Made by a program: the position numbers and the translations under genes. A DNA stretch of 64,000 bases from Candidatus Aenigmatarchaeota archaeon (lineage in GTDB: Archaea > Aenigmatarchaeota > Aenigmatarchaeia > QMZP01). Under the pieces are notes generated by a model. That model had not been told where the DNA came from. It worked only from the letters and a program-made list of their open reading frames with translations, and made no database searches. Positions 17,301-63,303 of the stretch are shown piece after piece; the stretch's first letter is position 1, and every line of letters begins with the position of its first letter. Location of the stretch: NCBI GenBank assembly GCA_016185435.1, contig JACPNN010000004.1:73635-137634 (forward strand). Direction: 5' to 3'.

Positions 17301-17750
17301 CTGGAATGGGGCGGGGTGGCGTGCTGCTATCCGGCAGGGCAGTACAAAGGGCAGGACGGAGACAAATTCTGCCAGTCCCTTGGATATCCTGCATGCGATG
17401 CAACGACTCATCAATGCAAGGCGGAGGCGCAGACGTGGGGGCCTGCCGATCATTGCAAGAACCAGATAGCGTCAAACCCGAAGGAGAAGTGCAACCTTGG
17501 TGCTGGAGGATGCTCATCGGATGCGGAGTGCTGCTCTGACCCTGCTGATTGCCAGGGCTCTGGAGGGCTGTTTGATGTCGATAGCGATGGAAATCCTGAT
17601 TCTCTGGAATGCAGGAGAAAAATAGCCAATGGCGTCTGCTGCCCTGCAAAGACAAGCGACAATGACTGCGCTGCAGCCCACCAGATGTTCACGGAGAACA
17701 AGAGCCCGGCAGAGGTAAGTGACTTCCTGAGAAAGAATACGGGTCCCTGA
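14376..17750 (+). CDS. Giant (1124 aa) polytopic membrane protein with N-terminal poly-Pro + CarboxypepD_reg-like domain and Cys-rich C-terminal domain
   Basis: PPPPPPPPGGGEGWIEGLVRDEGGRAIDNANVINHTTGEHTQTNHLGYYRLP, then at least 8 predicted TM helices (about aa 290-620), a large hydrophilic domain, and a C-terminus with more than 20 Cys. Confidence 0.6.
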   Translation: MPAIIINFIININVPPPPPPPPGGGEGWIEGLVRDEGGRAIDNANVINHTTGEHTQTNHLGYYRLPQDPREGLTPGHHLVACGATGFEDQEREIEVRPGRAANGNFTLHRRTGRTPAGQGVVYGQVWIKNAQGKDEPFIPQTERVPDWQQRNRIYAYPLTHTVLGWFGRILPDTRLNWPEAISEGHIDEHGRYSLSLFPGTYQLVCNITDPRRVQWPVADSRRDAAGNIIQPLPHHADPSSVYEPKTAMATVRAYQRTKHDFHFYPQGGSRIARGANTARNWIEQRWGAGITGNIHIIALLAIGVLISNYFHNTNFLLGFWSLVAYFLIPEPIQGRLQQELEEGHMQLQFRWRDLVMRGENREQFNNAWRWLLGNNNSQFTALRSFAKVMAIWFFSQGLLQSTFAFSNIMLLIVVFAGYYSFAIEYDTRRSGQVIESFFRFAFLGVYLIPWVVVARVFDSNVLGLIAFAFLAVPPFSRRDQQHESSIGSGLEPAMKVAFLICMIIALMYSGAMATFFPESQMFQTQTGWGLKGGLADTFFFFWFLTTLVGFFSPPQERPAAGFIMLFAATVIYALGPGTQEVGQGLLGPYFPAFYKGMIGTIKPVTQAFSGFGSAFGPALCLLTNPVACAQNITDGRWSQDSTTGIAGAYGVELEDFRMDDQIFTEQPFAITLKLNNLGSFDARHVDVSFAAGEDAATIEERESMWIRPFRSRQDTDNKRKRMNLAELGFGDRPDDPQGKEGLDCVEDSTGVPVLCRSTDRIDVMEKKDIQPIRFESNDEGIKCRAVTKYELYEKYLPFAAKVSYDYGISSSLDVEFLSDAEWRRKSQAEELTFQQKIPSTLSNSPVMLNIDTTPQPIREDVSFPIRMQLKTGPRGGTINRTYMINAEIPTELWKAKRYCTPSPSSETEIAQKGVTLVRWEESRILPSRTIACQFNGYKFPKGEKEKIGVQPTKSFLIKTNASYRFEKAEQTIGKLEWGGVACCYPAGQYKGQDGDKFCQSLGYPACDATTHQCKAEAQTWGPADHCKNQIASNPKEKCNLGAGGCSSDAECCSDPADCQGSGGLFDVDSDGNPDSLECRRKIANGVCCPAKTSDNDCAAAHQMFTENKSPAEVSDFLRKNTGP

Positions 17751-42274: not shown

Positions 42275-43879
42275 ATGAAGCTGTCCCTGCCGATAGCAGC
42301 TTTGATTGTCTTTTCTGCGGCAAGCACAGTAGGCCTTGGAGAGCTGCCTTTTTGTTCTGACACTGACAGCGGAATAGCAGAAACTTCCAGGGGCGTTTGC
42401 TCCTCCACATCCTTAAATTTCAGCGACAGATGCTCTGGACATTTCCTCCTCGAAGGCTATTGCAAAAAAGACAGCTCATGCGGCTTCAAAGCGATAGACT
42501 GCAACAGGTTCTGCAAAGGCCAGAATTCCGGACAGGCTGGCATATGCGATAATGGGGCATGTGCTTGCTCTGCTTCTCCGCTGCCGGCATGCTCTGACAG
42601 CGACAATGGCATGGAGCCTTTCTCATCCGGCATATGCTCGGTGACAAGAAACGGGAAAACAGAAAACTTTGGGGACAGGTGCATATCGCAAAATTTCCTC
42701 CTCGAAAGGGGGTGTTCCAGGGGCAGTGATTTTTGCCAGGCAAGATTTCTCAACTGCGATTCTGAGTGCAAAAAGGCTGACAGGAATTCCCTTGGGCTTT
42801 GCACTTCGAATGCATGCTCATGCGCTCCTTCACAAAAAGGGCCCAAGATTGTGATAAGCGAGGTGTACTATGACCCTCCGGATGAGACGGATGAGTTTGT
42901 GGAGCTGTTTGTTGAAAATGCGAGCATGCTGTTGAATGTTTCAGGCTGGAAAATAACTGATTTTGACAATAACAACATCACATTGCCCTTCATTTCGGGC
43001 CTTGGAAAATCTGATTACATAGTGATATACACAGGCAACGGGACAAATGATACGGACGCAAGTGACGGAAAAGCGGCCATATACAGGAGAAGGGGTTCAG
43101 GCATCTGGACCAATACTGGGGATGAAGTCGGCCTGTATGATCGGGAAGGAAAAATACATGACTTCATGAGATATGAGGAAGGCAATGGCGATCCTGTTCT
43201 CGCGAACTGGCCTTCCAGCGACAACGGGCCTGCAGCGCCTGAAGGCGAAAGCGTGCAGCTGAATGGGACGGACATGGACTCAGGGGTGAACTGGATATCT
43301 GCATTGCCAAGTCCTGGAGGGCCGATTATTTTCAAAACTCTGTATGATGATTTTTCTGGTAACAGCCTGAACCTGACAAAATGGAATGAATCGACAGACT
43401 TCGCTTTTACTGATATGCATGGAATAAATACTACAGAAGGAGCCTATCATAACTCTCAAATTGAGACTGTATCGCCTGGCACCACAACATTTCTCACAAT
43501 GAATAGGCTCATCCAGGCCACCGAAAGGCTTGAATTTGATATCAAATATGTGTCTGGGGAGGGGAACAACATATTCTACTATTATTTCAATGGGATAGCG
43601 CCACAACACCTCTTTAACTGCAGCAACTGTGGAACAATTGGATTTTGGAATACAAATGGATCTATAGGTACTGATTTTGGAATATACCATTTCAAAATCG
43701 AATTTTATCAAACAGGTGTATATTGGCAAATTAGAAAACCAGATAGCACGCTTTTCATTGCAAATTTCACTAATAGCCCAATCCTGATTGCACCCTATAG
43801 TGTGAAGTTTATTACAGCAACTGGACATAACGGCCTTGTTCACTTCGATTACGACAACTTCACCATCGTGAGGCTATAG
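42275..43879 (+). CDS. Secreted Cys-rich protein with lamin-tail domain (LTD)
   Basis: Signal-peptide-like N-terminus, two Cys-rich repeat modules, then the LTD signature KIVISEVYYDPPDETDEFVELFVEN...GWKITDF. Confidence 0.6.
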   Translation: MKLSLPIAALIVFSAASTVGLGELPFCSDTDSGIAETSRGVCSSTSLNFSDRCSGHFLLEGYCKKDSSCGFKAIDCNRFCKGQNSGQAGICDNGACACSASPLPACSDSDNGMEPFSSGICSVTRNGKTENFGDRCISQNFLLERGCSRGSDFCQARFLNCDSECKKADRNSLGLCTSNACSCAPSQKGPKIVISEVYYDPPDETDEFVELFVENASMLLNVSGWKITDFDNNNITLPFISGLGKSDYIVIYTGNGTNDTDASDGKAAIYRRRGSGIWTNTGDEVGLYDREGKIHDFMRYEEGNGDPVLANWPSSDNGPAAPEGESVQLNGTDMDSGVNWISALPSPGGPIIFKTLYDDFSGNSLNLTKWNESTDFAFTDMHGINTTEGAYHNSQIETVSPGTTTFLTMNRLIQATERLEFDIKYVSGEGNNIFYYYFNGIAPQHLFNCSNCGTIGFWNTNGSIGTDFGIYHFKIEFYQTGVYWQIRKPDSTLFIANFTNSPILIAPYSVKFITATGHNGLVHFDYDNFTIVRL

Positions 43880-46185: not shown

Positions 46186-46579
46186 TTACAAGATGAAACC
46201 CCTTTCCTTCAAAACTGCCTTCGCCTCTTCTGCAAAATTCTTCAGGCCTGCTATCTGTTTTTCTAAAGTCTCATTATCCAAGGCGATTTCTGTTTTCCTT
46301 CCATAATCTGCCTGCAGCCTCATCCCGTATGAAGATTCCAAAAGTTCCCTGTAGTTGTGACTGAGTGCCCCGGACTCAAAAAGCTTCTGGATGCTGTTCC
46401 AGATTTTTCCATGATTTCTGGAGGAAGCTCCATGGAAAGCCATAAGAAGGAGAGTAAGCCAAGTTTTCTCCTGCAATATACAAACGGCTTGCGGCCATAG
46501 GGAGGCTTATAGATAATGCAGCCTCAGCGTCCTTTATCGCCTGAATCCCTCTGATATATGACTCCTCTGCTTCATTCAT
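46186..46579 (-). pseudogene. HEPN-domain gene interrupted by a frameshift
   Basis: Two overlapping ORFs in different frames (46376..46579 with a HEPN-type N-terminus MNEAEESYIRGIQAIKDAEAAL, and 46186..46476 with the HEPN C-terminal half). Together they make one HEPN protein of about 130 aa. Confidence 0.5.
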
Positions 46580-47649
46580 TTCCAGTCCTCCAGCCTCTTT
46601 GAGGCCTCTCTGTATTTCTCCTCAAAAAGATTCAGTACTTTTTCAACTTCAGATTTGCTGACATCCAATGCGCTCTCATCCCACCACTTTCGTGTCAGCC
46701 TATAAGCAGAAGAAAGTTTTGCTTCTCCTATCTGTTTCAGTTGGGAAGGTATATCGTGTTTGGAACCTGGTATTATATTATTTAAAAGAAGCACCGCTCT
46801 GCACAGATGGATGGCTATTGTGCTCAGGAAGGATGGTGAGGAGTCCGGAAATTTTTTGTACATTTCCCTTGCCTCCTTCAGCCTCTCATCTGCAAATTTG
46901 AGCCTCATTCGAATTGATTTCTTTGTGACTAGGGGTATTCCTTTCAACAGATGGTGGGCAAAGAAGCTGTCCTTATCGAAAATCACTATCCCATCCTGCA
47001 TAATGTTTATCAGGAAATCATCGCCTATATCGTAATTATCCATGAATTGTTTTTTTGTTTGCAGAAAAACCTGGGATACCTCGGAAAATATATCTGAGAT
47101 CTCATGGCCAACTTCTTTCAGCTCATCTGCTGCCTGCTTTTGAACTGCAGTTTCCACGATAACCATGATATCTATATCGCTCCATTTTGCTGCCCTGCCT
47201 TTGGAAACAGAGCCAAAAACTACTACAGACACAAGGTTGTCTCCGAGTATTTCCTTATACGAGTCTTTAAGCCTGCTTATTGATGTCCTGAACCTTCCAG
47301 GAATATCAAAAAGCCTGTCCGTATGGGACAGCGCTATAAGGCTGAAGACAAAAGGATTGTTTTTGTTCAGCCTGTAGACAACCCTGTTCCCGTCATTTCT
47401 TCTTGTCAGGATCCTGTTCCTTTCGAACTCTTGCAGAAGCTCGCTTGTTCTGCCCAGCCCTACAGCAAGCTCTTTCGAAAGCTTATTGAGATAGTACTCT
47501 TCATAGGGCTTTCTTGCCATGGCCAAAAGTATCCTGAACCCGACCCTTGAAAACATCTTTTCTATCATAATTCTGTTTGGGGCAGGGGTATTTATAAACT
47601 TTCTGAAAATAGAAAGAAGTTTCTGATTTATAGCTATCGATACAAACAT
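46576..47649 (-). CDS. wHTH + nucleotidyltransferase (Pol-beta superfamily) domain protein, probable partner of the HEPN gene
   Basis: NTase motif VVVFGSVSKGRAAKWSDIDIMVIV in the middle. N-terminal wHTH-like region. Stop/start overlap with the HEPN gene. Confidence 0.7.
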   Translation of the reverse strand: MFVSIAINQKLLSIFRKFINTPAPNRIMIEKMFSRVGFRILLAMARKPYEEYYLNKLSKELAVGLGRTSELLQEFERNRILTRRNDGNRVVYRLNKNNPFVFSLIALSHTDRLFDIPGRFRTSISRLKDSYKEILGDNLVSVVVFGSVSKGRAAKWSDIDIMVIVETAVQKQAADELKEVGHEISDIFSEVSQVFLQTKKQFMDNYDIGDDFLINIMQDGIVIFDKDSFFAHHLLKGIPLVTKKSIRMRLKFADERLKEAREMYKKFPDSSPSFLSTIAIHLCRAVLLLNNIIPGSKHDIPSQLKQIGEAKLSSAYRLTRKWWDESALDVSKSEVEKVLNLFEEKYREASKRLEDWK

Positions 47650-47833: not shown

Positions 47834-48505
47834 TCATCTGATCCTGAAGTCGGAAATAATGCTGGTCTTATAGGAGCTGGGTATTGAGGAAAGTATGCTT
47901 TTTGTGCTGGTCACTTTGTCATCATATGTTATGTTCCATGTGCTGCCATACGATTCCACTTTTGTCACCCCTTCAAGACCTGAAAGCCTGGCCTTTGTCG
48001 CATAATAGCAGTTGGCGCACCATATGCCATCTATCCTGATGCTTGCCATCCTCAGGTCTGTCTTGCCTTCGATGTAAACAATTCTGGTTCCGCTTTCCTG
48101 AAAGGCCAGGGGGGCTGCCAAAGGGACGATGACAAATACTAGAATAACATACACAGCCGCATATGTGATCAGAACAAACGCTATGAGATTCCTGTATTGC
48201 TTGATTCCATGCATTGTGCACGCCTTCCTGTTCTGAAGGAAAACATAAAGGGCTGCGATCATGTAAGCGATCGAAAAGGCAATGAAGTGCCACCTGTATT
48301 CGGCAAAGGCGAGGACGAAGGAAGAGCTTGCAAGCCCAAGAAAAACGAGCGCCAGGGGGATTGTGCAGCAGAAGCTTGCAAAAAAGCCTGAAAGAAACCC
48401 GATTATTGAAGCGCTTTTATTGTCACTGGCTGTTCCTGGATCAGAGTTTTTGTAAAACCTGGACTTCCTGGCGTATTTGTTTGGGAAGGGCGTGTTGCTT
48501 TTCAT
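47834..48505 (-). CDS. MerT-like membrane protein fused to a C-terminal HMA (MerP-like) metal-binding domain
   Basis: Vicinal Cys pair in TM1 (FASFCCTIPLALVFLG) as in MerT. C-terminal GIWCANCYYAT CxxC heavy-metal-associated motif. Confidence 0.45.
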   Translation of the reverse strand: MKSNTPFPNKYARKSRFYKNSDPGTASDNKSASIIGFLSGFFASFCCTIPLALVFLGLASSSFVLAFAEYRWHFIAFSIAYMIAALYVFLQNRKACTMHGIKQYRNLIAFVLITYAAVYVILVFVIVPLAAPLAFQESGTRIVYIEGKTDLRMASIRIDGIWCANCYYATKARLSGLEGVTKVESYGSTWNITYDDKVTSTKSILSSIPSSYKTSIISDFRIR

Positions 48506-48642
48506 CTTGAATTATATTCTTTTTGCTGCTAAAAAATCAGTCACTGGTTTCAGGAATATCTTGTTAAAATCCAGCTTTGACATGTAAAGGTCAAGCATAT
48601 TAGCTTCCAAAGAAGTGTTAATTAATCCGATCTGGGTGAACT

Positions 48643-49266
48643 ATGGAACAAAAGATGGCAATCGTATTGGCAGTTGGGATAGTGCTGGGGCTTGCTGCTG
48701 GAACACTTATTTCTTCGTTCCAGGTAAACAGCCTCAATGCCAAGCTCACAGAGGTCTCAGGCAGGGCAACGGCTGCTGAAAGCCTCAAGGGCCAGATTTC
48801 AGACCTCAAGCTGCAATTGGAGAAGCTGAATGTGAATGAGCTCTACGGCCTTGTGAAAGCCGGAGACAAAGCCAAAGCCTATGGGATCGGCGACCTCAAC
48901 AAGATGCCTCCAATAATTGCTAATGACTATGTTGGCCAGACGCCTGTGGTGGTGTCATGGTGCCCCCTTTGCAACACCCTGACCGCATATGAAAGGGCTC
49001 TTCCAGGAGACATTATCGCCAATGGCAAGACCATATCCAAAGGCACAGTCCTGACTTTCAGGGAGGCAGGGGCGAGGAAGATACCAGGCACTGACATAGA
49101 CAACCTGCATTTCAAGGATGATGAGACAGGCAGCTTATGGGCTCAGGGCCCTGGAATGGCTGTGGAAGGGCCGGCCAAAGGGCAAGAGCTAAGGACGCTT
49201 CCAATCCAGCTGTTCAACAAGGGCGTAATAGCAAAAATGGGTGCGCCTGTCTGGGGTTCCAGCTAA
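48643..49266 (+). CDS. Membrane-anchored DUF3179-like protein
   Basis: N-terminal TM helix. VVVSWCPLCNTLTAYERAL motif is paralogous to the C-terminal domain of the 50003 gene product. Confidence 0.5.
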   Translation: MEQKMAIVLAVGIVLGLAAGTLISSFQVNSLNAKLTEVSGRATAAESLKGQISDLKLQLEKLNVNELYGLVKAGDKAKAYGIGDLNKMPPIIANDYVGQTPVVVSWCPLCNTLTAYERALPGDIIANGKTISKGTVLTFREAGARKIPGTDIDNLHFKDDETGSLWAQGPGMAVEGPAKGQELRTLPIQLFNKGVIAKMGAPVWGSS

Positions 49267-49286
49267 ACCAATTGGGGGGGGGATAT

Positions 49287-50006
49287 ATGCCAGAGCTCAC
49301 AGTCTTTGTTGCATTTGTAGCTGGCCTCTTTTCTTTTGTTTCGCCATGCATACTGCCTCTCATACCTGCATTCCTGTCTTACCTTTCAGGCGTCAGCCTG
49401 TCGGAAGCTGGGAAGAGCTCAAAGTCAAGGATATTTGTCTTCATGAATGCTGCTTTCTTTGTGCTTGGGTTTTCCCTTGTCTTCTCCATATTGGGCGTCC
49501 TGCTTTCAAGCATCCTCAGCGATGCAGCATACGACTTAAGGCTGTGGCTGGGAAGGATAGGCGGAGTGATAATAATAGCCTTTGGCCTTTACCTCATGAA
49601 GCTGATAAGGCTAACCTTCCTTGAGAAGGAGCACAAGATGAAGGTCAGGAGGTTCGGCAGCAGCTATGCCACTTCCTTCGCTTTCGGCGTCGCGTTTGCT
49701 GCAGGCTGGACGCCATGCGTTGGAGCAATACTTGGAAGCATACTTGCCCTTGCCGCAGTGCAGCCGCAGAATGCCTTCTCCCTGCTGCTTGCTTACTCTG
49801 CAGGCTTGGGAATACCCTTCCTGCTTTCCGGACTCTTCATCTCAAGGATGCAGCCATTAATAAAAAAGCATTCCAGTGCCATTGACAAGGCCAATATGGT
49901 GTTCGGGGCTGTGCTTGTGATTCTTGGCATACTCGTCTTTACCAACATGCTCGCATCAATAGCAAGCATACCTTTCCTTAACCAGTTCTTGCAGGGGGGA
50001 ATATGA
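49287..50006 (+). CDS. ccdA: CcdA/DsbD-type transmembrane thiol-disulfide electron transporter
   Basis: Start at ATG 49287 (MPELTVFVAFVAGLFSFVSPCILPLIPAFLSYLSG). Two conserved Cys sit in TM helices (..SPC.. and ..TPC..). The longer ORF from 49137 was rejected. Confidence 0.75.
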   Translation: MPELTVFVAFVAGLFSFVSPCILPLIPAFLSYLSGVSLSEAGKSSKSRIFVFMNAAFFVLGFSLVFSILGVLLSSILSDAAYDLRLWLGRIGGVIIIAFGLYLMKLIRLTFLEKEHKMKVRRFGSSYATSFAFGVAFAAGWTPCVGAILGSILALAAVQPQNAFSLLLAYSAGLGIPFLLSGLFISRMQPLIKKHSSAIDKANMVFGAVLVILGILVFTNMLASIASIPFLNQFLQGGI

Positions 50007-51526
50007 CAGGCTCAAGCAGGATGGCTTTGGGTATAGCAGTGGTCCTGATTGCAGGAGCCATAGCTTTCATAGAGCTGCAGAAACCGCAGGCAAAAATGCA
50101 GGAGGATGAAAATGTCGGCCTTTCAATAGGCAAGACGGCTCCTGATTTCCAGCTTGAAACGATTGACGGGAAAAAGGTGCATCTAAAGGACTTCAGGGGC
50201 AGGGCTGTCATTCTGAATTTCTGGGCATCATGGTGCCCTCCATGCAGGGTTGAGATGCCGGAATTCCAGCAGGCCTTCGACAAGAACAAGGACAAATTGG
50301 TGGTTGTGGGGGTAAACCTCCAGGAGGCAAGGGAAAATGCTCAGGCCTTTGTCGACAAAAACAGGATAACCTTTCCTATACTCCTTGACCCCAAGGCAGA
50401 GGTGAAGGACCTTTATGGGGTCTTTACCCAGCCTGTCACATATTTCATCGACAAGGAGGGAAAGATTGTGGACAAGAAGTTCGGGCAGCTGACTGGTGAA
50501 GAGATTGATGAGAAAATTGGAAGGCTTATTGGAGAGGGCTTGTCTAAAGCGAATGCCGGAAATGAGGAAATCAAAACCCTTCCGGACGGAACAAAATACA
50601 TCATCCATCCTGACAAGTTCCTTTCTGGCGGGCCTCCAAAGGACGGCATTCCATCAATTGACAATCCTAAATTTGTTTCAGTCAAGGAGTCAGAAGAATG
50701 GATGGAAGGCAATGATCTGGTTCTTGGGATAGTGCACAAGGGAGTGGCAAGAGCATACCCTTTCAAAATACTGGTCTACCATGAGATAGTCAATGATGAA
50801 ATTGCCGGAGACCCGATATTAATAACTTATTGCCCGTTATGCCAGACAGGGCTTGCGTTTGAAAGAAGGGTGAATGGCCAGGCTGTTGAATTCGGAGTTT
50901 CAGGAAAGCTTTACAACAGCGAGCTTCTGATGTATGACCGCTTGACTGAATCTTATTGGCCACAGAGCCTGGGGAAAGCCGTATATGGCAAGCTTACTGG
51001 GACAAGTCTCAAAAAATTGCCGATAGATGTTGCCAGATGGAAAGGCTGGAAGGAAAAGAATGCTGAAGGGCAAGTCCTTTCAAGGGACACAGGATTTCTC
51101 AGGGATTATGGAAGGGACCCTTATGGAGGCTATTACGATTCAAGAAGCGTGTGGTTCCCTCTGGAAAATGAGGACAAACAAAACAGGCTGCATCCCAAGG
51201 AAAGGGTGATAGGCATTGAAGCAAACGGCAAATACAAGGCTTACACGCTTGAAAGCATAAGGAAGGGGAAGGTGATAAATGATGCTGTCGGGGGAAAAAG
51301 TATCGCGATTTTCTATGACCCTGATCTTGATTTTGCGAGAGCCTTTGAAAGCGACGGGAGAAGCTTCAGGCCTGAAAATGGCAAAATACTTGATGACAAA
51401 GGCAATGAGTTTGCGGCAGACGGGAAATCAGGCAGCATGCAGCTTGAAAGGCTTATAGCTGAAAATGCGTTCTGGTTCGCATGGTATGCTTTCCATCCGG
51501 ATACGGATCTTTATAAGTTGAGTTAA
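50003..51526 (+). CDS. TlpA/ResA-like thioredoxin-fold thiol-disulfide oxidoreductase fused to a DUF3179-like domain
   Basis: N-terminal TM anchor, WASWCPPC thioredoxin active site, and C-terminal ITYCPLCQTGLAFERRV. Its ATG overlaps the stop of ccdA. Confidence 0.75.
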   Translation: MTGSSRMALGIAVVLIAGAIAFIELQKPQAKMQEDENVGLSIGKTAPDFQLETIDGKKVHLKDFRGRAVILNFWASWCPPCRVEMPEFQQAFDKNKDKLVVVGVNLQEARENAQAFVDKNRITFPILLDPKAEVKDLYGVFTQPVTYFIDKEGKIVDKKFGQLTGEEIDEKIGRLIGEGLSKANAGNEEIKTLPDGTKYIIHPDKFLSGGPPKDGIPSIDNPKFVSVKESEEWMEGNDLVLGIVHKGVARAYPFKILVYHEIVNDEIAGDPILITYCPLCQTGLAFERRVNGQAVEFGVSGKLYNSELLMYDRLTESYWPQSLGKAVYGKLTGTSLKKLPIDVARWKGWKEKNAEGQVLSRDTGFLRDYGRDPYGGYYDSRSVWFPLENEDKQNRLHPKERVIGIEANGKYKAYTLESIRKGKVINDAVGGKSIAIFYDPDLDFARAFESDGRSFRPENGKILDDKGNEFAADGKSGSMQLERLIAENAFWFAWYAFHPDTDLYKLS

Positions 51527-51569
51527 CATATCGAACTAACTGTCTCTGTAGTTGTTGCCAATTCTCTCC

Positions 51570-54098
51570 TTACTTTAGAAGATTAAGCAATTTATCTTCT
51601 ATAGAAAATGTCCATTTCTGGAATGATGATGCTCCGACATATTGATTGAACGCAAAGAGTGCTCCTGAAAGGATTAGGTAGCCTAAAACAATAAATAGTG
51701 CTCCAGATATGAGAGATGTCGAATGCACTCTGATTGTCTTTTTTCCGATACTGAAATGTAGTTCCTTGCCTTCGATCATTTTCCAATATCTCCCATTTTT
51801 ATCTATTTTGCTGAGATACGTCGAAAGGAGCAGTAATGGGAGGGCAAGGCCCAAAGCGTATAGGAATAAGAGCAAGCCTCCAGTAAGCGCTGAACCAGAT
51901 GTCGATGCCAAAAGAAGGACAGCAACTAGGATAGGCCCGATGCAGGGTGTCCACGATAAGCCGACAACACTCCCAAAAACAAATGCGCCGGCATACGTTG
52001 TTGGTTTGCTCTGCTTTATTTTTAGGCCAGTGAATCCTTTGCCAAATAAGATATACAATCCAAAGAGGATTACTATAATGCCCGTTACTTGAGAAAAGAC
52101 TGTTAGATTAGATTTCAAAAAATTTCCAATAAATGTTGCTGTCATGCCAAGGAGGGAGAACACAATAGCTAAGCCTAAAAAGAATGCTATGGCCATTCCC
52201 TTCACGTTCTTTTTTGATGATTCAAAAGTGTATGCAATATACGCTGGAAGAATTGGAAGTGTACATGGAGAAATAAATGAGAGAAGACCAGCAAAAAAAG
52301 CGACTAATAACAAGAGTAAAATTGGCCCTTCAAGCTTATTCAAGCCTTCATTGGTGGGAACAAATGCTACTGATTTGTTTGGTTCTTGGCTCTTAATAAG
52401 ACTATTAACCCAAAAGTTCTTCAATGCTTCTTGTTCAACTTGGTTAATCTCTGCTTTTTTGGAGTTGTATTCTGATATGAGGCCATGCTTGGATGCAAAT
52501 TGTGCGGCTTTTGCAATATAATATCCGCTGTCCAAACCACCAGCTTCACCAGTCTTACTACCCAATGTTTTGATACCGGCATCCAAATATTTAATATCTC
52601 CAGTCTGCTGATAGAGTTTCAGTAATGAATATGCAATAATCCCATTTTCTTCTGCTGGTTTAGAAAGGTCAATGTTTTCCCCAGGAGCATAAAGTTGTGT
52701 GTCGAGGCTGTTTCTCTCAAAGAATCCTCCACTGTTCCAATCATATAGGTTATTCAAGCTATATTCAGCTAATTTCTTAGCAGTAGCAAGATGCTCTTCA
52801 TCTCCTAAAACTTCATACCCTTCAGTAAATGCAAGTATCAAGTATGCATTATCTAACAAACTCCCGCGCACTTCTTTGCTTCCATCTTCTTTGTAATAGT
52901 GATACGCTCCATTTTCACTAACCATGTTCTGCAAGAAAAAATCAAGAGATTTTTTTGCCATTCCTTTATATTCTTGGTTACCTGTTCTTTGCCACAAAAA
53001 AAGATAGGCAAGTATCGCCTCTGTGTTCCAATCGGAGTATTTTGTCTTTTCCACCCTCGGCTTATCAGATGGTCGCGGGTTCTTTCCGTAATACGCATTT
53101 TCTCCGTGTACATCTGTATTGGCGTAGAATCCGCCAATTTTTCCATCGTACCAGTGTAATTTTATATAGTCATTTGTTTTTTCTACAACTTCATTTACCA
53201 TCGTATCGTTAGGTGTTATCTCTTTGAGATGTGCATAAGCCTTCAATAATTTGGCATTATCATATAGCATCTTCTCATAATGAGGTGGCGTCCATTCTCT
53301 TGTTGTGCCATAGCGATGAAAACCACCCTCAATGGGGTCAAAAAGATGGTAATTAGCTCCTACATCTTGGATTTTGGTGTACTGATTTTTTAGCGTGTTT
53401 TGTACCAATGTTAAGAATTGCTTGTTTCCTGTTGATTCATAAATCTCTAATGAAAAATCTAAAGTCCTTCCTTGGGGAAACTTCTGTCCGGTTCCAAAAC
53501 CGCCATAAATAGGGTCGTAAGTTTGTAAAGTATAAGAAGCGTAACCATTGATAATATTTTGCAGCTGGCTTTCTGTTGGGATAACTGGCCCCTCTTTTTT
53601 GTACTCGTAAGAAAATTCATTTGCGAATCCGCTGCTCTCAACATATTTGACGGCTTGCCTGAGGTTGGCTACCATGTTTTGCACTTGTCTTGGGCCGGAA
53701 TATCCAAAAAGTCTTTTGCCATTTGGGGACATTATAGTTGTTGAAGGCCAGCCGCCTTCCAAATATTTTCTTGTTAAATCCTGACGTTGGTCAGCGTCAA
53801 CGTAGATGGGTATAAAATTTTCATTGATATACGGATAAATGTCCGGATGAAATAGATAGTCTTCACTTTCGTAAACTTGACACCAATAACACCATGATGG
53901 AGCTGTTAATAAGAGAAATATAGGCTTATTTTGTTTTATTGCTTCATTGAAGGCGTTAGGGCCATAATCTCTCCAATTGATAAGCGGTTTTAACTTTTCA
54001 GAGTGTTCAAAAGAATAGTGAGATGTAGCCAAAACCGGTGATGGAAAAAGTGATGATAGGATTACAAGAGATAGGAGTAGATGTTTTCTTTTTCTCAT
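51570..54098 (-). CDS. Fusion protein: secreted YyaL/DUF255-like thioredoxin plus (alpha/alpha)6-type domain plus C-terminal CcdA-type membrane domain
   Basis: Signal peptide, SWCYWCQV thioredoxin-like motif, a long alpha-helical repeat region, then a polytopic C-terminus with FISPCTLPILPAYIAY and SWTPCIGPIL (the CcdA Cys pair). Confidence 0.7.
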   Translation of the reverse strand: MRKRKHLLLSLVILSSLFPSPVLATSHYSFEHSEKLKPLINWRDYGPNAFNEAIKQNKPIFLLLTAPSWCYWCQVYESEDYLFHPDIYPYINENFIPIYVDADQRQDLTRKYLEGGWPSTTIMSPNGKRLFGYSGPRQVQNMVANLRQAVKYVESSGFANEFSYEYKKEGPVIPTESQLQNIINGYASYTLQTYDPIYGGFGTGQKFPQGRTLDFSLEIYESTGNKQFLTLVQNTLKNQYTKIQDVGANYHLFDPIEGGFHRYGTTREWTPPHYEKMLYDNAKLLKAYAHLKEITPNDTMVNEVVEKTNDYIKLHWYDGKIGGFYANTDVHGENAYYGKNPRPSDKPRVEKTKYSDWNTEAILAYLFLWQRTGNQEYKGMAKKSLDFFLQNMVSENGAYHYYKEDGSKEVRGSLLDNAYLILAFTEGYEVLGDEEHLATAKKLAEYSLNNLYDWNSGGFFERNSLDTQLYAPGENIDLSKPAEENGIIAYSLLKLYQQTGDIKYLDAGIKTLGSKTGEAGGLDSGYYIAKAAQFASKHGLISEYNSKKAEINQVEQEALKNFWVNSLIKSQEPNKSVAFVPTNEGLNKLEGPILLLLLVAFFAGLLSFISPCTLPILPAYIAYTFESSKKNVKGMAIAFFLGLAIVFSLLGMTATFIGNFLKSNLTVFSQVTGIIVILFGLYILFGKGFTGLKIKQSKPTTYAGAFVFGSVVGLSWTPCIGPILVAVLLLASTSGSALTGGLLLFLYALGLALPLLLLSTYLSKIDKNGRYWKMIEGKELHFSIGKKTIRVHSTSLISGALFIVLGYLILSGALFAFNQYVGASSFQKWTFSIEDKLLNLLK

Positions 54099-54288: not shown

Positions 54289-54669
54289 TTACCCCTTCAG
54301 CGCCATCTTCAGCCTGTCAGGCATCATTGCCAGCGCCTTGAGTATGCCCATCAGGATTATGAATATGCCTGACAATATGAAGCCTATTCCGCCGAGCTTC
54401 AGGGTCATCAGCATAGGCGGGAAGACGAAGAAAATCGTTCTTGCCTCCACCAGTGCCGGGTTGTCGCTGCTTGTCGCAAGCTCCCAGACGTTTTTGGGCA
54501 CCTGACCTATTTCTGTAAGCGCAGGCTTCAGCGTCGTGAACTCAAGGTAGATAGCTGAAAGCACCATCATCAGGCCTATTGCTGCAAGCATCATTCCAAC
54601 CTTCGCCATCATCATGACCTTTGCCTTGGCTTTCTCAGGATCCATTGCCATCTCTTTCATGGTTTTCAC
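54289..54669 (-). CDS. Small polytopic membrane protein, hypothetical
   Basis: 126 aa, three predicted TM helices, Met/Lys-rich N-terminus. Confidence 0.4.
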   Translation of the reverse strand: MKTMKEMAMDPEKAKAKVMMMAKVGMMLAAIGLMMVLSAIYLEFTTLKPALTEIGQVPKNVWELATSSDNPALVEARTIFFVFPPMLMTLKLGGIGFILSGIFIILMGILKALAMMPDRLKMALKG

Positions 54670-55191: not shown

Positions 55192-55413
55192 TTATCCATT
55201 AATTTCAACTCCAGCGCCTTCTTTGCTGTATGCGTATAGTTTGCCGTTTTCCTCATTCTGCACCTTTGCATGGCTGCCATCGCAGAACGGCTTTTTCTTC
55301 GACAGGCCGCACATGCATATCCATCTGCTCTCTTTGCCAACCTGTATCTCCACGGGAGCCTTTTCCTCATGTATGACAATTCTTGCCATGTTTTCAGCCT
55401 CCTTTAAGGCCAA
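55192..55413 (-). CDS. CDGSH iron-sulfur domain protein (mitoNEET-like)
   Basis: C-x-C-x(8)-C-x(3)-H: ICMCGLSKKKPFCDGSH. Confidence 0.7.
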   Translation of the reverse strand: MALKEAENMARIVIHEEKAPVEIQVGKESRWICMCGLSKKKPFCDGSHAKVQNEENGKLYAYSKEGAGVEING

Positions 55414-55633
55414 GGGCCTTTTCTATAGCAGACTTGTCGAAGCCGACGATAATTTTCCCGCCTATATCGATGACAGGAACCCCCATCTGGCGGCTTTTTG
55501 CCATCATCTCAGCCGCAGCTATTGGATTATGCTCCACGTTCAGCTCTTTGTACTCTATGCCCTTCCCTTTAAAAAAATTCTTCGCCATTTTGCAGTAAGG
55601 GCATAATGTTGTTGTATAGATTTTCACTTCCAT
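55394..55633 (-). CDS. grx: Glutaredoxin (copy 1)
   Basis: MEVKIYTTTLCPYCKMAKNFF... CPYC active site. Start set at ATG 55633; the ORF-track start at 55642 is a GTG. Confidence 0.8.
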   Translation of the reverse strand: MEVKIYTTTLCPYCKMAKNFFKGKGIEYKELNVEHNPIAAAEMMAKSRQMGVPVIDIGGKIIVGFDKSAIEKALGLKGG

Positions 55634-55928
55634 GATACTCACCAGTTATGATTGAACGCAGGCTGATATTAATCTGATGTTTATGCATCAAAACTCGTGT
55701 TTAACTACACTTTCTTGTAGACTGATATAATAATCCTGACAATGACAGGAACTAAATATTTTCGCTTGTAATCAGCATGCTGCAAGATAGGCACTACATT
55801 GAGGTAAAGCTATCGTTTTTTGCTTTGATTTTGGGTAGAAACCAATCAGAAGGTATATTTAACTTACTTGTAAATCCAGTATCGGGATAAAATTGCACAA
55901 CCCCTCCCAGCTTTAGGTGGTATGCAAG

Positions 55929-58787: not shown

Positions 58788-60207
58788 CCAGCTTCTTCCT
58801 TATTTCATCATATGCGGCAATGCAGCAGTCGCCGTAGGCTGCGACTGTTTTCTCAATCTCCCTCTTTCCATGAGAGAAGGAAAGAAACAGCGGCTCCTCT
58901 ATATCTGCATCCGTAAGCACCCCGCGTTTCATCAGTTCTGTCTGCAGAAGAGGGTATAATGTAAGCTCGCAGTGCTCCAAATCCCTCCATTCCCTTATCT
59001 CTTCTTTCTTTGTGAAGGCTATCTGGAACATTGCAGGTATGCCGTTTATCAGGTGCGGAATACTGCGGTCTTCCAGTGCTTCATCCAAGCCGTTCATCAG
59101 CCTTTTTCCTGCGCTGTTTATATGGTCATGCACCCTGCGCTTTATGAGCTCCCTAATGGTTGTATCAGCCGCTGCAAGCGATACAGGATTGCTTGAATAT
59201 GTGCCTCCGTGCGCCACCATCCCCGGCCCCACAAGCTCCATATACTCCTTCTTCCCCACTATCGCAGAGATCGGAAACCCGTTACCCAATGCTTTCGCAA
59301 AGGTTGCAATGTCAGGCTTCACCCTGAAAAGCTCCTGCGCTCCTCCCAGAGCTGCCCTGAAGCCGGTTTTCACTTCATCGAAAATCAGAAGCATATCATG
59401 CCTGTCGCAGAGCTCTCTCAAGTGCTTCAAATATCCTTCCTTGGGCATGATTGCCGCAGCATTCCCCATTATCGGCTCCGTGATTATCGCAGCCGTATTA
59501 TCCTTGTTTTCCTTCACCGTTTTCTCTATGGCCTCAAAATTATTCCACCTTTCCACAATTACCATATTTTTTATCGCATCTGGAATGCCCAAGGACTGCT
59601 TATGGGGTATTTGGTTGTGCCCCCTTTTTCGAAGCCCGAACGGCGGTTCTGTGGACCAGAGGAGATAATCATGGAGGCCGTGGAAATGGCCTTCGAACTT
59701 TATTATCCTGTCCTTTTTGGTCGCAGCTCTCGCAATCCTGAGCGCATGCATTGTAGCTTCCGTACCTGTGCTTGAGAATCTGGCCATCTCCGCGCATGGT
59801 ATGATGGAGCACAGCTTCTTTGCAACCCTTATCTCAAGCTCGTGCCCTGCGGCATATGCTGTGCCCAGATGCTCTGCGCTGTGAACGCTTTTTGACACAG
59901 CTTCATAATCATGGCCCAAAATTACAGGGCCGTAACCCAGCCTGTAGTCTATGTACCTGTTGCCGTCAACGTCCCACAAATAAGCGCCTTTTGCTCTGGA
60001 TACATAAAGGGAGCATGGGAGTCCCGGAGGGCATATCCCTGATCTCCACACCCGTGCATTGGAGCTCACGCCTGCAGGCAGATATTTCATGGCCTCTTTG
60101 TACATTTTAAGCGACTTTTTGAAGCCCTTGTACTGCGCCATATAAGAAATTGTTCGGCCAATATTAATGCTTTCCTCAATATTCTCTCTTTCACTTTCCT
60201 TTACCAT
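58774..60207 (-). CDS. Class III (omega) aminotransferase, PLP-dependent
   Basis: 477 aa. The DEVKTGFR PLP-lysine motif is characteristic of class III transaminases. Confidence 0.85.
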   Translation of the reverse strand: MVKESERENIEESINIGRTISYMAQYKGFKKSLKMYKEAMKYLPAGVSSNARVWRSGICPPGLPCSLYVSRAKGAYLWDVDGNRYIDYRLGYGPVILGHDYEAVSKSVHSAEHLGTAYAAGHELEIRVAKKLCSIIPCAEMARFSSTGTEATMHALRIARAATKKDRIIKFEGHFHGLHDYLLWSTEPPFGLRKRGHNQIPHKQSLGIPDAIKNMVIVERWNNFEAIEKTVKENKDNTAAIITEPIMGNAAAIMPKEGYLKHLRELCDRHDMLLIFDEVKTGFRAALGGAQELFRVKPDIATFAKALGNGFPISAIVGKKEYMELVGPGMVAHGGTYSSNPVSLAAADTTIRELIKRRVHDHINSAGKRLMNGLDEALEDRSIPHLINGIPAMFQIAFTKKEEIREWRDLEHCELTLYPLLQTELMKRGVLTDADIEEPLFLSFSHGKREIEKTVAAYGDCCIAAYDEIRKKLATLR

Positions 60208-61231
60208 ATTGTATTATGGATTTTTCAAATTCCTCATCATTGCATGCACATATAAATTCGTTTTCATTCACATATCTGTATGCTGAATAAACAGCAGCCA
60301 CAGCCTCGCCTACGCCTGTAATTGCCTGCTTAAATTCCATATCGGCAACATCGCCTGCCGCGAATATTCCAGGCAGATTTGCCTCTGCTTTTCTGTTAAT
60401 GACGATTTCCATCTTTGAATTGGTTGCTATGCCGAGTGATTGCGCCAACTGGCTGTTAGGGATCATCCCTATCTCTACAAATACCGCATCTATCATAAAT
60501 TTTTTGCTGCCACTGTATTCCCTGTCCAATATGACATATTCAACCCTGCCAGCCCCATGAATTTCGTTTACATTGGTGTTGTTTATTATTTCTATCTTGC
60601 CCTCACTGATTTTCTGCTCTACTCGCCTCATGTTGACAGGCTCGGCCCTTATCTTCTCACCCCGGTAAACTATATACACCTTTTTTGCCCATTTTGCAAG
60701 CACCAGCGCTTCCTTTGCCGCGCTGTCAGAGCCGCCAACAACCGCCACGGTTTTCTCTTTGTATATTGGGCCGTCGCAGAGCGCGCAGGAGTGCACGCCT
60801 TTGTTTGCAAATTCCTTTTCTCCCGGAATTCCAAGCTCCCTGTGTTTTGCGCCGGTTGCAAATAAGATTGTCTTTGCATGGAAGCTCTGGCTTTCCGTGA
60901 AAATGGAATAGCACGATTCGCTGCATTTAACTATTTTTATCGCCTTCTCTTCCACAAGGTTTGCACCATAATCCATTGCATGCTCCTGAATATTGTCTGC
61001 CAGTTCTTGTCCTGTAAGTCTCTTGAAGCCAGGATAGTTTTCCACGACATCTGTCAGGATTATAGTCCCGCCTGTCATTTCCGAAAGCACAAGAGTTTTC
61101 ATGCCCAGCCTGCCGGCATACATAGCGCCTGCAAAGCCTACAACCCCTCCGCCGATAATGGCGATGTCATACGCTATGTGTTCGTGATCCATGGAAATAC
61201 CACCTTCAAAAAACTCCCGAAAATTTTGCAA
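60191..61231 (-). CDS. trxB: Thioredoxin-disulfide reductase-like FAD/NAD(P) flavoprotein
   Basis: FAD motif IIGGGVVGFAGAMYAG, redox-active CALC (HSCALCDGP), NAD(P) motif VVGGSDSAAKEAL. Confidence 0.8.
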   Translation of the reverse strand: MQNFREFFEGGISMDHEHIAYDIAIIGGGVVGFAGAMYAGRLGMKTLVLSEMTGGTIILTDVVENYPGFKRLTGQELADNIQEHAMDYGANLVEEKAIKIVKCSESCYSIFTESQSFHAKTILFATGAKHRELGIPGEKEFANKGVHSCALCDGPIYKEKTVAVVGGSDSAAKEALVLAKWAKKVYIVYRGEKIRAEPVNMRRVEQKISEGKIEIINNTNVNEIHGAGRVEYVILDREYSGSKKFMIDAVFVEIGMIPNSQLAQSLGIATNSKMEIVINRKAEANLPGIFAAGDVADMEFKQAITGVGEAVAAVYSAYRYVNENEFICACNDEEFEKSIIQYGKGK

Positions 61232-61326: not shown

Positions 61327-62316
61327 TTAGCCATATTTCACACCTCCATTTGCATTCCGCAGAATCTCTAATTCTTTTTGTATTTCTGCAATCATATGTT
61401 CAGTCATCTCCGGTAACCCATAGCGGTGGTTCCATCCCCATTGATCGCGTGCAGACGAATCATCAATGCTATTCGGCCATGAATCTGCGACTCTTTGCTT
61501 GAGATCATCTATCTTGTAATCTGTTTTGAAGCGGGGGATATGTTTTCTTATCTCCTCAGCCAGCTCTTCTGGGGTAAAACTCATCGCTGAAAGGTTGTAG
61601 CTTGTCCTTACCTTTATATCTTCCTTCGGCGCTTTCATAATCTCCAGCGCAGCTCTTGTTGCATCACGCATATCCATCATGGGCAGCTCTGTGTCGTGCC
61701 TCAGGGGGGAAGCATAATGCTCTCCCCTGACGGCTGCATAAATCATTTCAATCGCATACTCTGTTGTCCCAGGCCCTGGCTTTCCAGGAGTAAGCAGTCC
61801 AGGATAGCGTACGCTTCTCCCGTCTACTTCAAATTCGTCAAAAAATTGATTAAGAAGTTTTTCCCCTTCAACCTTGTTCCTGCCATATTCGAATTCCGGA
61901 TCCAAGGGAGCGTTTTGCGGCGTATTATGTTTCGGTGCGCTTGAACCAAAGACAGCGATAGAGCTGGGCCAGAACACCCTCATATCATACTCCCTGGCAA
62001 CATCAAGAACATTTTTCAGGCCGCCCATATTCACGCGTCTGGCGCGTTCCGGATCCTTTTCAGCCGCTATTGACAAGAGCGCAGCAAGGTGATAGATTTC
62101 ACCGTCATCCAAATCATGCTCCTCAACAACCGATATCAATCTTTCCTTGTCATACACATCGACTTGTGCCGATAAAGAGCCATCCGGAAGTCCGGTCAAT
62201 GGGGTTCTGTTATAGCCTGCTATGACCATCTGGGATCCATGCTGCGCATACAGCGCTTTCAATAAATTCCGCCCGATTGCGCCAGCTCCGCCGGTCACTA
62301 AAATATTTTTCATCAA
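61327..62316 (-). CDS. Extended-SDR NAD-dependent epimerase/dehydratase family, L-threonine 3-dehydrogenase-like
   Basis: ILVTGGAGAIGRNLLKAL Rossmann motif. The C-terminal ADSWP..DDS.AR..WGW resembles the C-terminus of SDR-type threonine dehydrogenases. Confidence 0.65.
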   Translation of the reverse strand: MMKNILVTGGAGAIGRNLLKALYAQHGSQMVIAGYNRTPLTGLPDGSLSAQVDVYDKERLISVVEEHDLDDGEIYHLAALLSIAAEKDPERARRVNMGGLKNVLDVAREYDMRVFWPSSIAVFGSSAPKHNTPQNAPLDPEFEYGRNKVEGEKLLNQFFDEFEVDGRSVRYPGLLTPGKPGPGTTEYAIEMIYAAVRGEHYASPLRHDTELPMMDMRDATRAALEIMKAPKEDIKVRTSYNLSAMSFTPEELAEEIRKHIPRFKTDYKIDDLKQRVADSWPNSIDDSSARDQWGWNHRYGLPEMTEHMIAEIQKELEILRNANGGVKYG

Positions 62317-62567
62317 ATCGCCTCGCTGTTTTGAGGCTCTGAAGCAAGCGCTTTTTCTATGGCTTGCCTGTCAAAGCCCACGATTATCTTGCCGTTTATG
62401 TCCAAGACTGGAACCCCCATCTGGTTGCTTTTCGCCGCCATCTCTTTTGCTGCGCTGGCATCGCTCTCAACATTGAATTCTTCATATGCGACGCCTTTTT
62501 TGCGCAACAAATTCTTAGCCATTTTGCAGTAAGGGCATAATGTTGTTGTATAGATTTTCACTTCCAT
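62313..62567 (-). CDS. grx: Glutaredoxin (copy 2), paralog of 55394..55633
   Basis: MEVKIYTTTLCPYCKMAKNLL...; the N-terminus and about 100 bp of upstream sequence are nearly identical to copy 1. Confidence 0.8.
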   Translation of the reverse strand: MEVKIYTTTLCPYCKMAKNLLRKKGVAYEEFNVESDASAAKEMAAKSNQMGVPVLDINGKIIVGFDRQAIEKALASEPQNSEAI

Positions 62568-63303
62568 GATACTCACCAGTTATGATTGAACGCAGGGTGA
62601 TATTAATCTGATGTTTATGTGTCAAAAATCATGTTTAACTTAGTTTTAAAGATTCTATAAGGATAAATAGCCGCCCAGGAGAAACAGAAATGATGGAAGT
62701 CGTCTACCCGTGCAAGGACTTTATCAAGCTCTTCCTGAATCCAGATCTTGCCGGAATCGTCTATAAGCCTATCGTCCATGTTAAGTAACCTTTACAACGC
62801 TTCACTCATACAACTCCGCCGGAAACCCTTCTATCCCCAATATGGAATCTTGAAAATAAGCGATCGTTGAAAAAAAATAAGGAGATGACAGGAGATTGGA
62901 TGTAGAAAATTCAAGGGAGAAACAGAAGGCTACAAATGCGATATGTGCGGGGCAGAAGCTGACGAGCACGATACAGATCATGGTTGAGGGAGCAAGCACT
63001 GCATGCCGAAATGCAGGTGCTGATATTTTTCGCAAATTCAGAATTGATTCATATTCTTTTCTGCAAAATATGCAGAACAGGAATTTCCGGTTGCAAGAGG
63101 ATTCAGGGGCCCGCATACGCATATGATGCAGGCCTTCCCTCATCTCCAAACAAAAATAGGGGGCATCAGCAACCGCAGTGGCCTTGGTCATTGGCTCCCT
63201 TTTTCCCTTTCTCCATAGTATCACCTCCAGAAGGATGTTGTGCTCGCAGAATATGTAGCTTCTATCTAAGGGTTAAAGTCTAGTTGTAATTCAAATCAGC
63301 ATC

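Follow-up and report, generated by a model that had tools for sequence, protein, structure and literature searches.

DUF3179 as a putative client of a CcdA-TlpA thiol relay encoded by a DPANN archaeon

Described CcdA-TlpA relays and their proposed counterpart in the window

Membrane proteins of the CcdA/DsbD type and the TlpA-like thioredoxins that they serve are usually accounted for by clients such as cytochrome c, Cu centres, Msr enzymes, peroxiredoxins and DsbC/G, but the pathway is also retained by many archaea and bacteria with small genomes that lack these clients. Here we analyze positions 47834-54098 of a 64-kb stretch of DNA (hereafter, the window) from a metagenome-assembled genome (MAG) that is labelled in the public record as Candidatus Aenigmarchaeota archaeon, a member of the DPANN (Nanobdellati) lineage. 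The region holds five open reading frames (ORFs), g1 to g5. We put at roughly 60% the probability that the best reading of its central operon, g2-g3-g4, is a relay that runs from thioredoxin reductase (TrxR) and glutaredoxin (Grx) to CcdA, then to a TlpA domain and finally to DUF3179, a family that the searchable literature mentions only as uncharacterized selenoproteins with a UxxC/T motif.

The closest functional analogues of this relay are Neisseria PilB (Trx-MsrA-MsrB, fed by DsbD) and the CcdA-Etrx-MsrAB2 system of Streptococcus pneumoniae. In both, as proposed here, a CcdA/DsbD conduit feeds an extracytoplasmic TlpA-like thioredoxin that in turn serves a terminal Cys-based reductase, and PilB, like g4, has the thioredoxin fused to its client. 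The client differs: it is MsrA/MsrB in those systems, whereas here it would be a DUF3179 domain, predicted to be Rieske-like and bearing CPLC or UPLC, in a DPANN host. Bacillus subtilis CcdA-ResA and CcdA-StoA share with g3-g4 the pairing of a CcdA that has six transmembrane segments (TMs) with a membrane-anchored ResA/StoA-like CxxC thioredoxin, and the motif of StoA is CPPC, as in g4. However, the locus offers no apocytochrome c or sporulation client, and the g4 thioredoxin domain is fused to DUF3179. In the Bradyrhizobium TlpA-Sco1/CoxB pathway an extracytoplasmic TlpA likewise keeps the Cys pair of a non-thioredoxin partner reduced, although that partner carries a Cu site, on a Trx-like fold in Sco1 and on a cupredoxin fold in CoxB, and g4 has no cytochrome oxidase context. 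The CcdA to TlpA to client type of pathway is thus already known, the families of g1 and g5 are populated but poorly studied, and all five proteins are public under generic names. What appears new relative to the searchable literature is DUF3179 as a conserved client, its duplicated Rieske-like architecture, and the U/C and C/T variation of its motif beside CcdA and Trx neighbours.

A sequence-only reading of this DNA had proposed the five genes as one dedicated system for thiol or metal redox chemistry outside the membrane. All five ORFs, with exact coordinates, and every Cys motif listed in that reading are present when checked position by position. Strands, which it did not give, were added in this analysis; the genes are not co-directional and fall into three transcription units, namely g1 (minus strand), g2-g3-g4 (plus) and g5 (minus). 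The plus-strand unit is tightly packed, with a 20-nt gap between g2 and g3 followed by an ATGA stop/start overlap of g3 and g4. On one side, g1 and g2 diverge from a 137-bp spacer (48506..48642) in which promoters are presumed to lie, judging from the sequence only; on the other, g5 converges on g4 across 43 nt. A run of nine G residues (49274-49282) stands inside the 20-nt gap, directly 5' of the g3 start codon. This homopolymer, which is prone to slippage, may act as a Shine-Dalgarno-like element.

The largest gene of the operon, g4 (50003..51526, plus strand, 507 aa), encodes a TM anchor, a TlpA/ResA-like thioredoxin domain (50108-50557) with a CPPC motif (WCPPC, 50234-50245), and a full two-module DUF3179 domain (50639-51505) with CPLC at 50831-50842. 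Domain scores throughout are from Pfam, with its gathering (GA) thresholds, and NCBIfam, with its curated cut-offs. The DUF3179 match (PF11376) scores 348.8 bits and spans profile positions 1-292 of 292. The N-terminal domain matches Pfam AhpC-TSA (117 bits) and Redoxin (91 bits) and falls under all curated NCBIfam cut-offs, with 138 bits vs 170 for ResA, 111 vs 210 for StoA and 62 vs 230 for TlpA; it is a family-level TlpA/ResA-like member only, with no named orthologue. Solved structures related to it include ResA (4NMU, E 2e-29), pneumococcal Etrx-type proteins (2YP6, 5e-27; 4HQZ, 1.9e-26) and StoA (3ERW).

Directly upstream, g3 (49287..50006, plus strand, 239 aa) matches DsbD_TM in Pfam (50.1 bits vs GA 27.1) and the solved Thermus thermophilus CcdA (5VKV, E 1.6e-31). 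Its P-C motif cysteines are Cys21 (49347-49349, SPCILP, TM1) and Cys144 (49716-49718, WTPCVG, TM4). Topology was predicted here, as for all genes below, from hydropathy and positive-inside counts of Lys and Arg (K/R). Six TMs are predicted, and because the K/R residues are confined to loops 1, 3 and 5 (nine, vs none in the other loops and the termini), both termini are predicted to face outside. By homology, we infer that g3 is a six-TM thiol-disulfide electron transporter. The public name of the protein (MBI2675151.1) is ‘sulfite exporter TauE/SafE family protein’. Given the clear CcdA assignment by Pfam and by homology to 5VKV, this is probably a mis-annotation, and the entry should read CcdA.

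The first gene of the operon, g2 (48643..49266, plus strand, 207 aa), is a membrane-anchored, one-module version of DUF3179, laid out as a TM anchor, a coiled-coil-like linker and one Rieske-like module, with CPLC at 48961-48972. It scores 61.7 bits, above the GA of 27, and covers only profile positions 24-131 of 292, so the DUF3179-like label that it had been given stands for a single module and not for the full domain. For both g2 and g4 we predict a single N-terminal anchor with the remainder of the protein outside. A Methanosarcinales MAG (locus L012) encodes a mini-DUF3179, a CcdA and a TlpA-DUF3179 fusion in the g2-g3-g4 order, with 54%, 61% and 56% amino acid identity to the respective window genes. 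Given this shared order and identity, g2 is a real conserved gene rather than a pseudogene fragment. The operon g2-g3-g4 is the conserved functional core of the region.

The DUF3179 family and its genomic neighbours

DUF3179 is a large family, with more than 8000 relatives scored in one search, and is listed among the UxxC/T selenoprotein families (PMC9312934, PMC13188914). A thioredoxin or redoxin domain is fused to 12 of the 120 closest homologues. Most homologues have an N-terminal hydrophobic segment (105 of 115) or a lipobox-like motif (53), and the family is therefore generally exported.

We surveyed 80 DUF3179 loci from species-representative genomes of very diverse phyla, using iterative hidden Markov model (HMM) searches of six-frame ORFs and scoring the presence of CcdA within 6 kb. 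CcdA is encoded in 24 of these loci, in 23 of them together with a Trx-like gene. The association is tight: of 28 CcdA genes, 22 are found no more than 1 kb from DUF3179 (147 kb of flank), and the other six are in the remaining 551 kb. The resulting densities, ~0.15 per kb near DUF3179 vs 0.011 per kb further out, differ ~14-fold and provide an internal control. All but one of the 28 CcdA genes share the strand of DUF3179. When the two closest genes on either side are ranked by Pfam family, Redoxin, AhpC-TSA, Thioredoxin and DsbD_TM come out highest, and no copper, mercury or cytochrome family occurs in the top 25. DUF3179, redoxin and CcdA genes are adjacent in Woesearchaeota and in one Spirochaetota genome, and DPANN and Patescibacteria frequently carry the module. 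With recurrent fusions and this proximity, the DUF3179-TlpA-CcdA pairing that had been offered as a functional hint proves to be real and general.

The redox-active motif of the family is highly constrained. C/U-P-L-C/T is invariant across 48 aligned sequences, and the 80 surveyed loci include 74 with CPLC, three with an in-frame TGA (UPLC) and two with CPLT (L052, ~2996; L072, ~6154). Each TGA falls exactly at the first Cys codon, in Dehalococcoidaceae (L011:3822-3824), Actinomycetota (L034:3286-3288) and Nitrospinota (L061:2178-2180), making these genes probable selenoproteins in three phyla. This assignment is based on the literature and on the conservation of the TGA position rather than on RNA structure: hairpins resembling selenocysteine insertion sequences do follow the three UGAs, but their folding is statistically indistinguishable from that of shuffles (z +0.05 to -0.74). 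In L011 and L034, Trx and CcdA genes are directly upstream. A nucleophilic Cys with a dispensable resolving Cys would be expected to vary in this way, with selenocysteine (Sec) at position 1 and Thr at position 4, whereas a metal site that requires both thiolates would not.

A comparison of the DUF3179 profile HMM with all PDB sequences gave no meaningful match to any solved structure. An AlphaFold2 model of the g4 domain has a pLDDT of 95.1 and a pTM of 0.92. Foldseek finds no match to this model in the PDB at E ≤ 0.001, and only weak local matches to Rieske proteins. The two halves of the domain are an internal duplication, detected by profile-profile comparison (probability 96%, E 4e-9), and the model shows a tandem-duplicated, Rieske-like beta-sandwich fold with the invariant CPLC in the first module. 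This N-terminal module holds a nearly invariant H-E-x-x-N-D...T-Y-C-P-L-C signature, residues that the C-terminal module has lost. The His-Glu pair of the signature (His71-Glu72, upstream of CPLC) is nearly invariant in full-length members and absent from g2 and its L012 orthologue. Further invariant polar residues are K24, D25, N75, D123 and Q132.

We considered whether DUF3179 is a true Rieske protein and rejected this. Rieske [2Fe-2S] ferredoxins such as T4moC (1VM9) and CarAc (3GCE) have a Cys-x-His...Cys-x-x-His ligand set that DUF3179 lacks, and the DUF3179 fold differs from theirs in being tandem-duplicated, extracytoplasmic and Trx-linked. Only two Cys are invariant in DUF3179, and a Rieske cluster is therefore impossible; in addition, His71 is missing from g2 and there is no Pfam Rieske match. 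Sequence similarity to T4moC is not significant (hhalign probability 0.65%, E 0.087). CPLC can be aligned in two registers, with either box I (C-P-H) or box II (C-x-x-H) of Rieske proteins.

Ammonia-oxidizing archaea present a different arrangement. Nitrosopumilaceae DUF3179 loci contain no CcdA or Trx-like gene, and in every one (L020, L022, L023, L026-L030, L035 and L062) a ~160-aa, ~4-TM protein is encoded directly downstream (e.g., L035:6963-7448, plus strand). The protein belongs to no Pfam or NCBIfam family; of its three invariant Cys, one is in LGC68 and the other two are vicinal, in SLVPLGC100C101GWWLY. These archaea may use it as an alternative membrane thiol partner of DUF3179. At the same loci a DoxX gene is often found upstream on the opposite strand.

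A further recurrent neighbour, beside archaeal DUF3179/CcdA modules, is a fusion of an HFX_2341_N/Csa3_N-like Rossmann domain with an ArsR-type helix-turn-helix (HTH) domain (L010, L012 at 2680-3315 on the minus strand, L025, L036, L037, L051 and L062; also L001 and L005). This fusion may regulate the modules. The window lacks it and has g1 at that position instead.

The proposed relay and its rivals

Three genes elsewhere in the window could supply the cytoplasmic side of a relay. A YruB-family glutaredoxin-like protein (55394..55642, minus strand; TIGR02196, 97.9 bits vs a cut-off of 88.55) is a candidate donor to CcdA, and a second YruB-type protein (62313..62576, minus strand; Glutaredoxin, 72 bits) may be another. 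A thioredoxin-reductase-like flavoprotein 9 kb away (60191..61231, minus strand) is the candidate entry point for NAD(P)H; it scores 150 bits against Pyr_redox_2 and 287 bits against TIGR01292, a full-length match that does not reach the cut-off of 343. A homology cluster of YruB-type glutaredoxin-like/TrxR-like proteins occurs near DUF3179 in 13 of the 80 loci, and also in L001 and L005, which fits the proposed donor side. The first YruB-type gene is overlapped at its 3' end, by 20 nt, by a 73-aa zf-CDGSH iron-sulfur gene (55192-55413, minus strand), suggesting co-translation of two small redox proteins.

In the relay that we favour, NAD(P)H would reduce the TrxR-like flavoprotein and, through it, the YruB-type proteins in the cytoplasm. 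These would pass electrons to g3, and, by homology with CcdA, the two membrane-embedded Cys would carry them across the membrane to the outside-facing, membrane-anchored CPPC domain of g4. As the fusion and the conserved adjacency suggest, the TlpA domain would then reduce the fused DUF3179 CPLC in cis and the CPLC of g2 in trans. DUF3179 would be the terminal extracytoplasmic client, its first Cys (Sec in some species) acting as the nucleophile and its second (Thr in some) as the resolving residue. At the cell surface it would most likely reduce a putative oxidized substrate, which may be a small oxidant or else a sulfenate or disulfide in a protein.

Three observations weigh against this scheme. 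Proximity is the sole basis on which the cytoplasmic donors are assigned. In 56 of the 80 loci there is no CcdA within 6 kb of DUF3179, so any dependence on CcdA there would have to act in trans or use another partner. Finally, a conserved His-Glu upstream of CPLC, on a fold known for metal clusters, is also compatible with metal binding.

The last point leads to the rival that survives best, although we consider it unlikely: DUF3179 would be a thiol metallochaperone or metal binder (e.g., for Cu(I) or Hg(II)), CcdA-TlpA would only keep its Cys reduced, and g1 would serve the same function. In Bradyrhizobium, TlpA reduces the Cys pairs of Sco1 and CoxB. A Rieske-like fold is a metal-cluster fold, the His-Glu pair persists in nearly all full-length members, g1 is adjacent and divergent, and ArsR-type HTH regulators occur in several DUF3179 loci. 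At L057, genes for a MerA-like reductase and for an HMA P-type ATPase lie ~1-5 kb upstream, and UxxC motifs are also found in several metal-binding selenoprotein families. However, g2 and its L012 orthologue dispense with the His-Glu, the CPLT variants have lost one of the two thiolates, and two invariant Cys preclude a Rieske cluster. The neighbourhoods point away from metals as well: the 80 loci contain no MerT match and HMA in only three, their top 25 neighbour families are free of Cu, Hg and cytochrome functions, and neither merA nor merR was found in the window. A general link to MerA was examined separately and dropped, as the ‘pyridine nucleotide-disulfide oxidoreductase’ cluster near DUF3179 is heterogeneous and MerA-like in L057 only. 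Of the roles that the sequence-only reading had offered for the region, metal handling thus persists as a minority rival.

Another of those roles, disulfide reduction of Cys-rich surface proteins, is possible, and would be a specific form of the terminal-reductase scheme in which DUF3179 acts as a DsbC/DsbG-like reductase or isomerase. We rate this form as somewhat less probable again than the metallochaperone. Three Cys-rich secreted ORFs in the window could be substrates for extracytoplasmic disulfide chemistry: 3435-6461 (minus strand, 28 Cys), 14376-17750 (plus strand, 25 Cys, with a CarboxypepD_reg domain) and 42275-43879 (plus strand, 22 Cys, with an N-terminal signal-like segment and a Lamin Tail Domain). 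A Pro after the first Cys (CP-x-C) is typical of redox CxxC motifs, and the reliance on a reducing pathway parallels that of DsbC on DsbD. Yet the DUF3179 fold is not that of thioredoxin, there is no co-occurrence support with Cys-rich proteins, and the invariant K24, D25, N75, D123 and Q132 suggest a defined pocket for a small substrate.

The remaining role, the reducing branch of System-II-type cytochrome c maturation (CcdA with a ResA-like protein, and DUF3179 as an accessory), is very improbable. In its favour, the annotation of CcdA refers to cytochrome c biogenesis, ResA is the best NCBIfam match of the g4 N-terminal domain (at a score short of its cut-off) and ResA proteins are the closest solved structures of that domain. 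Against it, CxxCH occurs in none of the 75 ORFs of the window, neither the window nor the 25 most frequent neighbour families at the 80 loci include ResB, CcsBA or Ccm, DUF3179 rather than a heme lyase is the conserved partner, and the module is often found in DPANN and Patescibacteria, which generally lack respiratory cytochromes.

Returning to the relay with DUF3179 as its terminal client, we tentatively extend it to the family, at less confidence than we have in the relay itself. DUF3179 may be a previously unrecognized class of extracytoplasmic Cys/Sec reductases that uses a Rieske fold duplicated in tandem, a former cluster-binding loop having become a C/U-P-L-C/T site. It would be the main client of CcdA-TlpA in cytochrome-free DPANN and candidate phyla radiation (CPR) organisms, and ammonia-oxidizing archaea may feed it via a different, CC-motif membrane protein.

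Genes flanking the operon and the reach of the DUF3179 link

The minus-strand gene g1 (47834..48505, 223 aa) encodes a divergent MerT-like protein with a degenerate HMA-like C-terminal domain. It has a Cys pair (CC46-47) in TM1 (48365-48370), a single loop Cys (Cys96) and a CANC motif (48008-48019). Like MerTP and MerT-MerP, it is predicted to have three TMs, a vicinal CC in TM1 and a C-terminal CxxC domain outside the membrane; its N-terminus, with seven K/R, would be inside. It differs from them in having one loop Cys rather than a pair, a degenerate HMA motif, and scores far below all curated cut-offs (Pfam MerT 21.6 vs 32.9; MerTP_fusion 54.3 vs 180; MerT PRK13751 23 vs 150), albeit that the sub-threshold MerTP_fusion alignment covers profile positions 2-179 of 186. 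There is no Pfam HMA match at E ≤ 0.01, only weak NCBIfam matches to CopZ, MerP and UxxU, and the motif GIWCANC is degenerate compared with GMTCxxC.

A word-indexed homologue search with g1 returned only g1 itself, and 372 remote representatives (25-35% identity) are MerT+HMA fusions. In these relatives the CC (in 26 relatives), Cys95 and CxxC are invariant; the second loop Cys pair is missing from both g1 and its relatives, which have one conserved Cys (C95/96) after TM2. Two remote relatives (P0246 and P0254) are on contigs of <1.5 kb, and their contexts are uninformative. No similarity was detected between g1 and the CC-motif membrane protein of Nitrosopumilus. The window contains no merR or merA, and its sole flavoprotein disulfide reductase is the TrxR-like protein. 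We predict that g1 is a divergent MerT-HMA membrane protein that binds soft metals. No conserved link between g1 and the g2-g3-g4 core was found among the 80 loci, and g1 is probably functionally separate from that core.

At the other end of the region, g5 (51570..54098, minus strand, 842 aa) combines a YyaL/DUF255 thioredoxin-like region with a CcdA membrane domain. The Thioredox_DsbH (DUF255) domain (53643-54023; 65.9 bits vs a threshold of 27) carries CYWC at 53880-53891, and the CcdA domain (51645-52343; DsbD_TM, 74.4 bits vs GA 27.1) has P-C motifs at Cys612 (52263-52265, SPC612TLP, TM1) and Cys719 (51942-51944, WTPC719IG, TM4). Among solved structures, the C-terminal domain matches CcdA 5VKV (1.4e-25), and the N-terminal region matches 7TKV (5.6e-21, residues 38-312) and 3IRA. 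The (alpha/alpha)6-like middle gives weak matches to GH88, epimerase and C5-epimerase, and to mannanase 4V1R over residues 340-515 (5.8e-7). The N-terminus resembles a signal peptide (MRKR, a hydrophobic stretch and VLA/TS), and the prediction is of a 560-aa outside domain followed by a CcdA core that enters the membrane from outside, with six core TMs and one extra (12 K/R in loops 1, 3 and 5 vs four elsewhere).

Proteins of this kind are widespread: more than 110 full-length homologues with 50-75% identity occur in Woese-, Pace-, Nano- and Undinarchaeota and in Nitrosotalea, with CYWC in 111 of 118 and at least two PC motifs in 112 of 113. We found no discussion of the fusion architecture in the searchable literature. 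Like E. coli DsbD, g5 unites a DsbD/CcdA-type membrane core and a secreted thioredoxin-like domain in one polypeptide, but in the order Trx(DUF255)-(alpha/alpha)6-TM rather than alpha(Ig)-beta(TM)-gamma(Trx), without an Ig-like alpha or a C-terminal gamma domain, and with 55 bits against an NCBIfam DsbD cut-off of 330. The N-terminal domain passes the Pfam threshold of the family that includes YyaL, DUF255, Chlamydia DsbH and human SPATA20, from which g5 differs in being fused to its own CcdA conduit, an architecture that is common in metagenomic DPANN and Thaumarchaeota sequences. From sequence, g5 would be an independent second conduit, its CcdA domain reducing its own secreted YyaL-type domain.

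These comparisons alter the picture of the region as a whole. HMM searches back four of the five earlier domain assignments (CcdA, TlpA/ResA-like, DUF3179 and YyaL/DUF255); the fifth, MerT-HMA, is sub-threshold everywhere, and because it lies under curated thresholds the searches tell in part against it. The suggestion of two CcdA-type transmembrane conduits is borne out, with g3 and the C-terminal domain of g5 both homologous to 5VKV, as is, at the level of prediction, the placement of the thioredoxin-like domains outside, where hydropathy and the positive-inside rule also put the DUF3179 and HMA domains. The idea of one dedicated five-gene system did not survive. Only g2-g3-g4 is conserved, g5-type fusions stand alone in three other archaeal genomes, and the 80 loci are devoid of YyaL and MerT relatives (HMA matches occur in three), so the five-gene island is a juxtaposition of three units. 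Across those loci and the three genomes with g5-type genes, adjacency of g1 and g5 to the core is conserved nowhere, and we rejected the island as a conserved unit.

Other genes border the region. Next to g1, the stretch 46186-47649 (minus strand) encodes a 357-aa protein with a weak N-terminal ArsR-like HTH and an MntA-like nucleotidyltransferase domain. The small ORF that follows the MntA-like gene (46186-46476) has no family match and is a candidate HEPN-type partner; the two look like a type VII toxin-antitoxin-like pair. Directly upstream of g5 and on the same strand, 54289-54669 (minus) encodes a 126-aa, Met-rich membrane protein with no Cys and no family assignment, and genes without family likewise precede the g5 homologues in L092 and L094.

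The TlpA/CcdA fusion and synteny give the large DUF3179 family, its selenoproteins included, a testable role and a first concrete functional context. A Rieske-like fold with CxxC or UxxC in place of the ligands would be an unusual reuse of a metal-cluster scaffold for thiol chemistry. The link to DUF3179 also suggests a purpose for the CcdA-TlpA pathway in DPANN and CPR organisms.

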